The notes below the pieces were generated by a model. The model did not search any database and had not been told where the DNA came from. It saw only the letters and a list, made by a program, of their open reading frames with translations. Below, one piece after another: positions 644-11,670 of a stretch of 64,000 nucleotides of DNA. Origin of the DNA: Escherichia coli (GTDB taxonomy: Bacteria > Pseudomonadota > Gammaproteobacteria > Enterobacterales > Enterobacteriaceae); assembly GCF_024223415.1 (NCBI RefSeq), contig NZ_CP100500.1, one strand, 5' to 3'. The position numbers and the translations under genes are program-made. The first letter of the stretch is position 1. Each line of letters opens with the position of its first letter.

Positions 644-1408
644 ATGAAAATGCAGACATTACCCATCGTTCCATGGATTGGTGGCAAACGTCGCCTGGCA
701 AAACACATCCTGCCGCTGTTTCCGGCGCATGAATGTTACGTGGAGCCGTTCTGCGGCGCAGCAGCGCTCTATTTTCTTAAGACACCTGGTAAGCTCGAAG
801 TCATTAACGATATCAATGGTGAACTGGTAAATCTGTATCGGGTGGTAAAACATCATCTGGAAGAATTTGTCCGCCAGTTCAAATGGGCGCTGGTCAGCCG
901 GCAGATCTACAAATGGCTGCAGATCACCCCGACAGAAACACTGACGGATATCCAGCGTGCAGCACGGTTCTACTACCTCCAGAAGCAGGCGTTTGGCGGC
1001 AAGGTGGCAGAGCACAGCTTCGGCACCTCCACCACATCCCCGCCACGCTTCAACCTGCTGCGTATCGAGGAAGAACTGTCAGCGGCACACCTGCGGCTTT
1101 CCAGAACGGTGATAGAACACATGGACTGGCAACAGTGCATTGAGCGCTATGACCGTCCGCACACGCTGTTCTACTGTGACCCGCCGTATCTGGGTACAGA
1201 AGGCTATGGTGTGGATTTTCCTGAAGGGAACTACTCGCGGCTGGCAGAGCTGGCCCGGTGCATCAGAGGAAAGATGATAATTTCGGTGAACGACATCCCG
1301 CAGATGCGCGAGGTGTTCACTGGACTGAACATACAGACAGTGAACATCAACTACAGTCTGGCAGGCAAATCAACTCCACGCCGTGAGCTGGTGATCTGCA
1401 ATTTCTAA
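644..1408 (+). CDS. Dam-family (D12 class) N6-adenine DNA methyltransferase, orphan/phage type
   Basis: N-terminal WIGGK AdoMet-binding motif (PWIGGKRRL) and catalytic DPPY motif (YCDPPYLGTEGY); no adjacent nuclease partner. Confidence 0.85.
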   Translation: MKMQTLPIVPWIGGKRRLAKHILPLFPAHECYVEPFCGAAALYFLKTPGKLEVINDINGELVNLYRVVKHHLEEFVRQFKWALVSRQIYKWLQITPTETLTDIQRAARFYYLQKQAFGGKVAEHSFGTSTTSPPRFNLLRIEEELSAAHLRLSRTVIEHMDWQQCIERYDRPHTLFYCDPPYLGTEGYGVDFPEGNYSRLAELARCIRGKMIISVNDIPQMREVFTGLNIQTVNINYSLAGKSTPRRELVICNF

Positions 1409-6724: not shown

Positions 6725-6994
6725 ATGAAATCCACCACAGGTATCAACCAGCAAATCAGCAAAGTGCAGTCAGCCATTATGGCGCTTAAGGCGACGAACA
6801 CGGATGTACAAAGCATCACCATCAGGGGTAACAAACCTGTCATCCGCGTTTCCCGGAGTGCGCATTGCATGCGCATGCTTGAGCAGGGAAAGGCCTGTTA
6901 TCTGTATACCGGACATGACCACAGGGGATATTTCCGTCAGGGCGTTTTCGAACTGCACGGCTGTCGCGTCGTGTGGCCGGAATCTTTGTGGTAA
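6725..6994 (+). CDS. hypothetical early-region protein (89 aa)
   Basis: AAGGAG RBS; no motif recognised. Confidence 0.45.
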   Translation: MKSTTGINQQISKVQSAIMALKATNTDVQSITIRGNKPVIRVSRSAHCMRMLEQGKACYLYTGHDHRGYFRQGVFELHGCRVVWPESLW

Positions 6995-8122: not shown

Positions 8123-8419
8123 ATGACACGAAACACCGAACTCACCCGCACCGCCCTCTACCGTCTGGCCCTGCAGCGTTTCGGGCCGGATGCACAGGCC
8201 CTGAAACTGACAGAAGAGGCCGCTGAACTGGCGGCCAGTGCTGCCCGCAACCTGAACGGACAGGGCAGCGAAAGTGACCTCGCGGCAGAGCTGGCAGACG
8301 TGGAAATCATGACAGAGCAACTGCGCCTTCAGGGGATGGACCGGCTGATTGACTTCCACAAACAGAAAAAACTGGAACGTCTGGCTGCACGACTGGGCGT
8401 GATTTACACGAACGAGTAA
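8123..8419 (+). CDS. MazG-like nucleotide pyrophosphohydrolase candidate (all-alpha NTP-PPase fold)
   Basis: 98 aa; EExxE ... ExxD acidic motif pair (EEAAELAAS ... AAELADVEIMTEQL) at MazG-like spacing. Confidence 0.5.
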   Translation: MTRNTELTRTALYRLALQRFGPDAQALKLTEEAAELAASAARNLNGQGSESDLAAELADVEIMTEQLRLQGMDRLIDFHKQKKLERLAARLGVIYTNE

Positions 8420-8433
8420 CCGGGAGGCATTCA

Positions 8434-8556
8434 ATGGCTGACATACTCAGGGAAATCACCGCATGGACACTGATTCTTACTGGTCTGGCGACATGCCTCA
8501 GTGCGGGAGCAGCCCTGGCTGCCCTGCTGATGCACATAACAACACAGTGGTTATGA
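8434..8556 (+). CDS. small hydrophobic peptide (40 aa, one predicted TM helix)
   Basis: not in supplied track (<60 aa); GGGAGG RBS about 7 nt upstream of ATG; hand-counted coordinates. Confidence 0.3.
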   Translation: MADILREITAWTLILTGLATCLSAGAALAALLMHITTQWL

Positions 8557-8645
8557 GAAAAGCTTAAAGCAGCATACAGCCTGAAAGAGCTGTCCGACGC
8601 TGTCCGGGCATGGAAACGGCAGAAAAATACCGGAGATACAGAACA

Positions 8646-9329
8646 ATGACAGACCAGAATAAACACATTGAGAAACTGAAAAAGTTGCTGGCGCTGGCCG
8701 CATCCGGCAACCCGCATGAGGCTGCTCTGGCACTGCGCCGCGCCCGTAAACTGATGGATGTTCACGGCATCACACATTCCGACATCGCCATGAGTGATAT
8801 TGATGAAACCATCAGTCACTACTGGCCGACAGGCAGCCTCCGTCCGCCGCGCTACATGCCAGGGCTGATGAACATCATCCGCGAGGCATTTGGTGTTAAC
8901 TCCATCATTCACCCCGGCACATATCCGGGTGTGGGGTTCTACGGCAAACGGGAACGGGCCGCACTGGCCGCGTACACCTGGGAAGTGCTGGCCCGTCAGC
9001 TGAAAAAGGCGCGTCAGCAGTATATCAGTGCACAGAACAAAAGAATAAAAACCGCCACCCGCACCAGCCGTGGAGACCAGTTTGCTGAAGGCTGGGTGCT
9101 GGCCGTTATCAGTGAAATACAGTCCTTCGCCCTGACCAATGACGAACGTGAACTGATGCAGCAGTGGCTGGAACATAAATACCCGCAGACGCAAACCACC
9201 AGGGCGCGTAAACCGGGAAGAAGTCGCAATGGCGACGCCTCGCGCTATGCGGGGTTTCGAGAAGGGCAGAACGTCAGACTGCACCGACCGGTCAGTGGGC
9301 GGGAACAGCAGAAACTGGAGGCCAGATGA
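8646..9329 (+). CDS. DUF2786-like phage protein
   Basis: track ORF 8610..9329 trimmed to Met with GGAGA RBS; N-terminal KLLALAASGNPHEAALALRRARKLM motif typical of this family. Confidence 0.5.
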   Translation: MTDQNKHIEKLKKLLALAASGNPHEAALALRRARKLMDVHGITHSDIAMSDIDETISHYWPTGSLRPPRYMPGLMNIIREAFGVNSIIHPGTYPGVGFYGKRERAALAAYTWEVLARQLKKARQQYISAQNKRIKTATRTSRGDQFAEGWVLAVISEIQSFALTNDERELMQQWLEHKYPQTQTTRARKPGRSRNGDASRYAGFREGQNVRLHRPVSGREQQKLEAR

Positions 9330-9556
9330 TGACGTTATCAGGTAACAGCCGGAAATTAAAAGCCTGCCGAATATCTGCCAGATACCTTTTTGCCCGCGCC
9401 TTTTTTAAGAACGTCAGGCCGGGGATCACAATTGGTGTTATTGCCGGACGCGAACAGGTTGAAAAATACATGTCAGGTGCATGGTGGAATAAAGACCCTG
9501 TCATTGCTGCCCGTAATATTCATATCAGTTGGGGAGATATTCAGAATGACTGCTGA
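9326..9556 (+). CDS. hypothetical protein (76 aa)
   Basis: GGAGG RBS; overlaps neighbours head-to-tail. Confidence 0.35.
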   Translation: MMTLSGNSRKLKACRISARYLFARAFFKNVRPGITIGVIAGREQVEKYMSGAWWNKDPVIAARNIHISWGDIQNDC

Positions 9557-9761
9557 ATCTGTTGTATGTGCCCTGTTCTGGTATTGTTTTGTCGGTTGGT
9601 GTACTGCTGAACTGCACCGCCGTTCAGGGTTTTATTCACGTTACAGTGGTGCCGGTTACTGGATTAGCTGGTCGGTGATGTTCCTGTGCTGGCCTGTGGC
9701 ATTTCCTTTATATGTCGATTATATCGGTGATGCAGGCAGAAGGAGCAACGATGATGACTAA
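9546..9761 (+). CDS. small Trp/Cys-rich membrane protein (71 aa)
   Basis: track ORF 9390..9761 trimmed to ATG 9546; hydrophobic. Confidence 0.35.
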   Translation: MTAESVVCALFWYCFVGWCTAELHRRSGFYSRYSGAGYWISWSVMFLCWPVAFPLYVDYIGDAGRRSNDDD

Positions 9762-10573: not shown

Positions 10574-10618
10574 TTCCTGCTTGTTAAAGTCCTTTCAAAA
10601 ATCTCCTTATTGTATAAA

Positions 10619-10649
10619 AGCACGGTAGACCCCGTACCGTGCTTTTTTT
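10619..10649 (+). terminator. rho-independent terminator downstream of mor
   Basis: GC-rich hairpin AGCACGGTA...TACCGTGCT followed by a run of 7 T. Confidence 0.5.
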
Positions 10650-10687
10650 ATGCTCTCTCTTTAGTATTCAGGATGCAGGGAGAAAAT

Positions 10688-11320
10688 ATGTTTGACGTTT
10701 CGTTGTTAAATCTGCCATGGGCAACACTGGTGACCCTGACCAGTGGCTATATTGGGTATTTTATTGCGAATGTGGGACTGAAGGATCACCACAAGCCCAT
10801 TGAGGTGACTTTTTCTTCGCTGATTTTTGGCCTGACAGCAATGATGGCTTACCAGGCTGTTATGTGGGCAGGTCTGAATGCCTGGCTGGCAACACCACCA
10901 GCACTTCTGTGTGCCGTTACATGCGGTGCGTGGTGGCGCAGGTACGGTCGCAAATGGATGTACAGATTACTGTGGAATAATGATATTTCATGGTCTGACG
11001 ATACCAGCTCAGCATGGCAGGCAATGTTTGATCAAACAGGCTTCAGCGTTACCGAGGTCAGAGTGATTCTTCGCGATGGTTCCGGTATGATGTCACGGCT
11101 GCCAGGGAACTTTGAACAGTGGCCTAACGGTCCGTTTACCCTGGGGAATAAAGGCGATATGGTTCTTTACGTCACGCACAGCAGCCCTTCAGGCAGTAAC
11201 GAATGGGAAGAGTATAAAGGCGTGGTTGATAAGTACTGGGGAGCTCTGGCAACCTATATTCCAGCAGATCAGATTGCCAGAGTGGAGATCAGGCGCGTTC
11301 GTGCAACGAACGATGAATGA
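10688..11320 (+). CDS. membrane protein (210 aa), N-terminal TM helices plus soluble C-terminal domain
   Basis: track ORF 10610..11320 trimmed to ATG 10688 (GGGAGAA RBS) because the upstream part overlaps the mor terminator. Confidence 0.5.
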   Translation: MFDVSLLNLPWATLVTLTSGYIGYFIANVGLKDHHKPIEVTFSSLIFGLTAMMAYQAVMWAGLNAWLATPPALLCAVTCGAWWRRYGRKWMYRLLWNNDISWSDDTSSAWQAMFDQTGFSVTEVRVILRDGSGMMSRLPGNFEQWPNGPFTLGNKGDMVLYVTHSSPSGSNEWEEYKGVVDKYWGALATYIPADQIARVEIRRVRATNDE

Positions 11321-11670
11321 TGTTTATTTTTTCCCTGGGGCAGGGGCTGCCGGCATAGTGGTTTTATTGGCAGAGGAAGACGATTCTCCTTTTCTACCGG
11401 AATCGCGCTCGAACGTCACGATGTGCTTGCTTTTGGGATTTTCTGAGTAATCCAGGCTATCATGCTTATTGTTTTGAGTAGTCATTGGAATCATCCTTTT
11501 TGTTGCGGGTCATGTTTCAGCAAACTCGATTCTAAGTTGCCAGGAAGGATGATTTCAATGCCCGACTTATCTATCGTATAGCGGAAAAGAATTTCAGTTC
11601 TGTTCACCAGAACCCATGTTAACCCACTCCAATTCGTTATTTATCTCACGGATCCCCCTTCATTTATCTC

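Follow-up and report, generated by a model that had tools for sequence, protein, structure and literature searches.

Is the 40-codon hydrophobic open-reading frame at positions 8434–8556 (plus strand) of the Escherichia coli DNA analysed here a small gene in its own right, or a piece of something longer? The frame runs from an ATG at 8434–8436 to a TGA at 8554–8556 of a 64 kb stretch (64,000 nucleotides, which we refer to as the window) and translates as MADILREITAWTLILTGLATCLSAGAALAALLMHITTQWL, a short acidic N-terminus followed by a hydrophobic segment whose Kyte-Doolittle maximum (1.98 in a 19-residue window) falls at residues 13–31, making one transmembrane (TM) helix at about residues 8–33 plausible. 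Reading the sequence directly, a Shine-Dalgarno motif, GGGAGG (8422–8427, plus strand), lies 6 nt before the ATG and 3 nt past the TAA of the upstream gene, which stops at 8417–8419, with the ATG of the small gene 14 nt further on. The upstream gene (8123–8419, plus strand) encodes a 98 aa MazG-like NTP pyrophosphohydrolase (phrog_2245, E 4.8e-34; it bears the same PGAP name in E. coli NR301), and the downstream gene (8646–9329, plus strand) encodes a 227 aa DUF2786/DUF7168 protein (Pfam PF10979, E 4.4e-11; PF23771, E 4.7e-26) that starts at the ATG at 8646, not at 8610. An earlier note on this DNA had described a 40-codon frame with a strong GGGAGG ribosome-binding site and a single predicted TM helix, located between a MazG-like and a DUF2786-like gene, and all of this is borne out, including the coordinates. 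It had also called the frame unannotated, which is not so, as the identical 40 aa CDS is carried by PGAP in NR301 (RefSeq WP_264100159.1, 'hypothetical protein'). Among the 227 ATG-initiated frames of 30–60 aa in all six frames of the window, a suitably spaced Shine-Dalgarno core precedes three, and the frame at 8434–8556 is the only one that joins this to a hydrophobic stretch of TM grade, which argues that it is not a chance pattern.

Comparison with relatives points to a conserved unit of 71 rather than 40 codons. In the nearest phage record, Escherichia phage PhiKM (97.3% identity, classified Bcepmuvirus), the same start opens a 71-codon CDS (XRL29417.1, MADILREITAWTLILTGLATCLSAGAALAALLMHITTQWLWEKLKAAYSLKELSDAVRAWKRQKNTGDTEQ), and an alignment of 271 bases shows three differences between the window and PhiKM, one of which changes TGG (Trp41) to the TGA at 8554–8556 (plus strand). 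Past this stop, codons 42–71 (EKLKAAYSLKELSDAVRAWKRQKNTGDTEQ) and the original stop codon (TGA, 8647–8649) survive as an untranslated remnant at 8557–8649 (plus strand), identical at the DNA level to PhiKM; with TGG in place, the frame spans 71 codons and ends at 8647–8649 in an ATGA overlap with the DUF2786 start at 8646. In PHROG profile searches the reconstructed 71 aa protein matched phrog_3958 over positions 1–71 of 71 (E 1.1e-41), the 40 aa of the window matched positions 1–40 (E 2.5e-19) and the 30 in-frame codons past the stop matched positions 42–71 (E 7.3e-14). Since both sides of the TGA match the same family, the window holds a whole gene, broken by one in-frame stop. By profile significance the locus is a member of phrog_3958 as DNA, and its predicted product is a truncated member: the full-length architecture of the family, a TM helix and a basic tail in one protein of 58–75 aa, is split into its halves by the TGA at codon 41, and of the residues invariant in the family G17 and G25 are present, W41 is the stop and A56 lies in the untranslated part. 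We read the frame as what a nonsense mutation at Trp41 (TGG to TGA) has left of a conserved accessory gene of 71 codons, phrog_3958, which lies in the early operon of transposable BcepMu/SalMu-type prophages of Enterobacteriaceae, and put the probability of this reading at about 0.87. What stands of the original small-gene proposal is a genuine coding gene with a ribosome-binding site and a TM helix; what falls is the novel, free-standing unit of 40 codons, since the 71-codon unit already bears a hypothetical-protein annotation in hundreds of genomes. The earlier note had also made its proposal depend on conservation in related prophages, and the gene is indeed conserved there, both as phrog_3958 and in the prophages of relatives.

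The order of events can be read from the relatives. Trp occupies position 41 in a second, diverged group of alleles (type B, below) and in all distant relatives, which contradicts an ancestral TGA and a derived TGG. The window agrees base for base with a metagenome contig (L009) across 6,123 nt, and because the other early genes are full-length in both, the stop is a single, isolated lesion rather than part of a general decay of the prophage.

The prophage end segment that carries the gene extends from window position 1 to about 11,682. It encodes a minus-strand HTH repressor, an rve-type transposase (589 aa), an ExeA-like AAA ATPase, Gam and several small genes, then the MazG-like gene, the small frame, the DUF2786 gene, a GemA-like gene and Mor; an ABC-transporter permease and then inositol-catabolism-type genes of the chromosome follow past the prophage. 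This gene order is that of Burkholderia phage BcepMu from gp09 to gp01, whose early operon reads toward the genome end, and the rve transposase, ExeA-like ATPase, Gam, GemA and Mor, all in one operon directed toward the genome end, mark the element as a BcepMu/SalMu-type prophage. Relatives of BcepMu in Salmonella Typhi have been termed 'SalMu' (PMC3417384). We considered and rejected a Mu-like element consisting of the early region only, which the chromosomal genes following mor might suggest, as the BcepMu layout also places mor at the genome end. The prophage end abuts hydN in NR301, ydgH/pntA in a type-B locus (L006) and iol-type genes in the window, and up to 3–4 copies of the region occur per E. 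coli genome; the varied insertion sites and multiple copies are consistent with active transposition of a BcepMu-type phage.

Within this operon the small gene is a plain internal cistron, since we found no promoter-like or terminator-like site on its strand and, at the gene itself, no Rfam family or unusual RNA structure (fold z-scores of 0.09 and −0.60). The same values, with 0 Rfam matches, led us to reject a reading of the locus as an RNA element (riboswitch, sRNA or attenuator). As the early operon is repressed in lysogens, the intact protein would be expected to act in early lytic development, and the ATGA overlap would couple translation of DUF2786 to that of the intact small gene. In the window, translation would end at the boundary between membrane and cytosol, yielding a tail-less, TM-only peptide of 40 aa and leaving 89 nt untranslated between the premature stop and the DUF2786 start, which possesses its own GGAG 10 nt upstream.

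A profile search of 1.84 billion representative proteins recovered distant relatives of 58–75 aa, sharing 26–37% identity, in Klebsiella, Salmonella, Serratia, Limnobaculum and a Sphingomonadaceae MAG. All 12 aligned members match phrog_3958, which is annotated as of unknown function, and none of the 12 matches Pfam. The family alignment shows no variation at G17, G25, W41 and A56 and almost none at K43, and three patterns recur: a short N-terminus that is neutral or acidic, a TM helix with a small-residue face (G17-x3-C21-x3-G25), and a W41-x-K motif leading into a basic helix of approximate form (K/R)-x-A-(Y/H)-S-L-x2-L-x2-A-V-(R/K)-A. In the intact gene an aromatic W-x-W-x-K junction follows the TM helix and the conserved basic tail comes next, so the mutation in the window strikes the invariant Trp and deletes the most conserved half of the protein. 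AlphaFold2 models the 71 aa form as one continuous helix over residues 2–69 (mean pLDDT 78). The N-terminal flank has a net charge of −1 to −2 and a cluster of K/R residues lies past the helix, and we infer from the positive-inside rule that the intact protein is bitopic in the inner membrane, with its N-terminus out and its C-terminus in. The glycine-containing face may pack against another TM helix, and the cytoplasmic tail is the putative effector part. Searches of Pfam, NCBIfam, PADLOC and PDB sequences with the 71 aa protein or its alignments returned no match, PhiKM was the sole match in a tblastn search of 50,697 phage records, and the literature on the peptide, DUF2786, PhiKM and BcepMu/SalMu yielded no functional information on the small gene. 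The allele in the window is most likely a loss-of-function or strongly hypomorphic form of a dispensable gene.

That the frame is coding is supported by two diverged allele types. In type A, to which the window belongs, the GGGAGG motif is identical in 26 of 26 loci from IMG/VR; type B, found in E. coli, Salmonella (including Typhi) and Citrobacter, has a GTG start with AGGAGG 5 nt before it. Over codons 1–40 the two types differ at 42 of 120 nt (65% DNA identity) without a single indel, and the ratio of dN (0.37) to dS (0.865) is 0.43 in the proposed frame, as against 0.68 and 1.28 in the other two frames of the same segment. The type-B helix is the more hydrophobic (Kyte-Doolittle 2.63), and when an equal number of random substitutions was simulated, an open frame of equal hydrophobicity was retained in 2.4% of trials. 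Codons 41–71, by comparison, are nearly identical between the types (dN 0.028, dS 0.169), as is the DUF2786 gene. The upstream neighbour in type B is different, a gene of 127 aa, and the ATGA junction at the end of the small gene is kept. This 127 aa gene (3625–4008 in L006, and present in Salmonella and E. coli) lies between the MazG-like and the small gene; it has no Pfam or NCBIfam family match, but the PADLOC profile PDLC02890 'DpdH' fits across 127 of 127 positions (E 5e-92), a strange name for an early gene of a Mu-like phage.

To count the two forms of codon 41 we searched 5,426 complete E. coli genomes by megablast with 55-nt queries that have base 8556 at their centre; each query matches its own allele only, since a central mismatch leaves exact words of 27 nt, below the word size of 28 nt. 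The TGA query found a single genome (NR301), the TGG query 531 genomes at 554 places, and the 1.6 kb region around the frame is present in 623 of the 5,426. In a larger assembly collection, the exact 71 aa type-A protein occurs in 28,053 assembly blocks, the exact 71 aa type-B protein in 8,009 and the exact 40 aa truncated protein in 544 (319 contigs). The truncated allele is a real circulating variant, in roughly 2% of type-A carriers, and as the same base recurs in hundreds of independent assemblies, the TGA is no sequencing error. Prophage backgrounds carrying the truncated allele differ by 32–56 SNPs over 6.1 kb, and a second 40 aa variant with T12I exists. Among 30 IMG/VR loci, 28 have an intact 71-codon frame with the ATGA junction, the other two being frameshifted, and none has a stop at codon 41.

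Given its occurrence in 544 assembly blocks, in several prophage backgrounds and in a T12I variant, the truncated allele may be neutral or even useful rather than simply defective. The same distribution, across 319 contigs, speaks for the strongest alternative to a broken gene, namely that the 40 aa TM-only peptide is itself functional, perhaps as a membrane-active or toxin-like peptide or as a dominant-negative partner of other copies, and that the stop is kept by selection. The peptide retains the TM helix with its invariant G17/G25 face, and up to 3 copies of the region can be present in one E. coli genome. As a small, hydrophobic, single-helix peptide it also resembles, especially in this truncated form, the type I toxin peptides (Hok/Gef, TisB, Ldr, Ibs and ShoB), although the basic cytoplasmic tail of about 30 aa in the conserved unit has no counterpart in these toxins. 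At the small gene, however, we found no antisense or overlapping sRNA, no promoter of its own and no toxin match in Rfam or Pfam, and in the absence of an antisense RNA and a separate transcription unit the locus is not a type I toxin locus. Nor does any result favour a membrane-depolarising peptide, the possibility behind the overexpression assay proposed in the earlier note. The allele is moreover rare (~2% of type-A carriers, 1 of 532 complete genomes), it has lost the invariant Trp41 together with the best-conserved segment of the family, and its 30 downstream codons are still identical to those of the intact gene, which fits a recent lesion. On balance we think it quite improbable that the short peptide has been selected as such.

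A leaky allele is less probable still. UGA is occasionally misread by tRNA-Trp in E. coli, which at this codon would restore the wild-type residue, and with the downstream frame and ATGA junction intact, low-frequency reading of this kind would give a reduced amount of the 71 aa protein and so a down-tuned expression of the gene. Against this, readthrough is usually low, and no recoding signal or RNA structure was found past the stop (fold z-score 0.09). The last alternative, a chance frame in an intergenic spacer or a sequencing artefact, can appeal to the shortness of the frame and to the ease with which TM-like stretches arise in GC-rich frames, but is refuted by the conservation data, that is, by the strong phrog_3958 match, the conserved Shine-Dalgarno motif, a dN/dS below 1 and relatives in other genera, besides the unique pairing of Shine-Dalgarno motif and hydrophobicity in the window and the identical TGA base in hundreds of independent assemblies.

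The nonsense allele is one of several kinds of variation at this gene. The TM-coding segment contains two tandem 9-nt units, GCAGCCCTG and GCTGCCCTG (8509–8526, plus strand, from reading the sequence), and it is at this site that the natural alleles of 68, 71 and 74 aa vary in length, in steps of one AAL unit. Several frameshift alleles begin there too, for example one found on 37 contigs (P0018), so that the site looks like a slippage hotspot that alters the length of the TM helix; TRF makes no call here because two copies are too short. The gene can also be missing altogether. A 221 bp segment (8410–8630, plus strand) comprising the end of the MazG-like gene, the Shine-Dalgarno motif and nearly all of the small gene is present or absent among related prophages, and it is missing in E. 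coli 83972 and E30, where the MazG-like protein ends ...VMYTGDTEQ* through an in-frame fusion to the last codons of the small gene that keeps the ATGA overlap with the DUF2786 start. The ends of this indel show a common short AC/TAC microhomology. The small gene is absent from the related prophage of about 93 complete E. coli genomes, 83972 and E30 among them, and from phage Phi06_2974 B.

The operon surroundings of distant family members vary widely: a Klebsiella Mu-like prophage has the gene ahead of GemA, a Limnobaculum Mu-like prophage has it behind an endolysin, and a lambdoid contig carries it upstream of NinG and the Q antiterminator; in Salmonella it follows Ead/Ea22, and elsewhere it adjoins a terminase gene. 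The small gene is thus a portable accessory cistron, and its neighbours are uninformative on its function. We also asked whether DUF2786 is always accompanied by a small TM gene and rejected this, as the DUF2786 neighbours are hydrophilic in Shewanella MuM16-2 and in Pseudomonas Spike and JBD18; BcepMu gp04–gp07 are likewise hydrophilic. Holins and antiholins belong to a late lysis cassette, beside an endolysin or spanin, and are rejected by position: the window and the related E. coli and Salmonella loci all have the gene in the early operon, after gam and before gemA/mor, and the only distant relative placed directly after an endolysin is P0106.

The small bitopic inner-membrane regulators of enterobacteria, AcrZ, MgrB, SgrT and MgtS, offer a likeness in build, being proteins of 40–70 aa with one TM helix, a short soluble segment that could touch a partner and no enzymatic domain; the phrog_3958 gene has no sequence similarity to any of them (by Pfam and NCBIfam searches) and, unlike them, is phage-borne and set inside an early operon. 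Among phage proteins, SPO1 gp56 of Bacillus phage SPO1 is a cell-division inhibitor and p16.7 of phi29 is a membrane anchor for replicating DNA, and both resemble the present gene in being encoded in an early operon and in joining a TM anchor at the N-terminus to a soluble helical part; there is however no homology, and the tail here measures only about 30 residues. With low confidence, we would guess that the family acts as a membrane-anchored modulator, binding a host or phage partner through its tail. A bolder view would see phrog_3958 as a so far unrecognised group of small, portable membrane regulators of phages, in which a glycine-zipper-like TM helix and a W-x-K basic cytoplasmic helix move together between Mu-like and lambdoid early operons, and in which the recurrent truncating, frameshift and 9-nt-slippage alleles, the Trp41 stop of the window among them, are selected attenuations of a protein costly to the host and not neutral decay; we hold this to be unlikely.

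The family is already catalogued (phrog_3958) and the exact 40 aa product already has a RefSeq accession, so the finding, real but ordinary, matters little in itself. It does carry a practical lesson, in that what looks like a new micro-gene can turn out to be the remains of a longer conserved one, and the frame past the stop should be compared with that of relatives. The intact 71 aa protein, present in tens of thousands of Enterobacteriaceae assemblies and bearing invariant residues, is a reasonable, unremarkable candidate for functional screens of small proteins, in which the naturally occurring Trp41-stop allele could serve directly as a control lacking the tail.

Several other features of the same prophage segment were recorded. 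Upstream of the repressor lies a gene for a D12-class N6-adenine DNA methyltransferase (644–1408, plus strand). Directly after the ExeA-like ATPase, an 89 aa gene (6725–6994, plus strand; phrog_2041) occupies a position equivalent to Mu kil and weakly matches (E 0.019) a PHROG whose annotation is Kil septation inhibitor. A 325 aa frame on the minus strand (8307–9284), antisense to the small gene and DUF2786, is left unannotated in related records and is probably spurious. Further along, a second hydrophobic early gene of 71 aa (9546–9761, plus strand) belongs to phrog_6436, also annotated as of unknown function; it has two hydrophobic stretches rich in Trp and Cys and overlaps the gene on either side. 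Between mor and the prophage end are a gene for a protein of 210–236 aa with hydrophobic segments and no Pfam match (10610–11320, plus strand) and a small frame of about 53–56 aa (11324–11494, minus strand); both look like cargo (moron-type) genes and both are absent from the type-B locus L006. Near the right end of the prophage, a 16-nt inverted repeat (11483–11498 and 11545–11560) is 94% complementary, its arms lying 46 nt apart.
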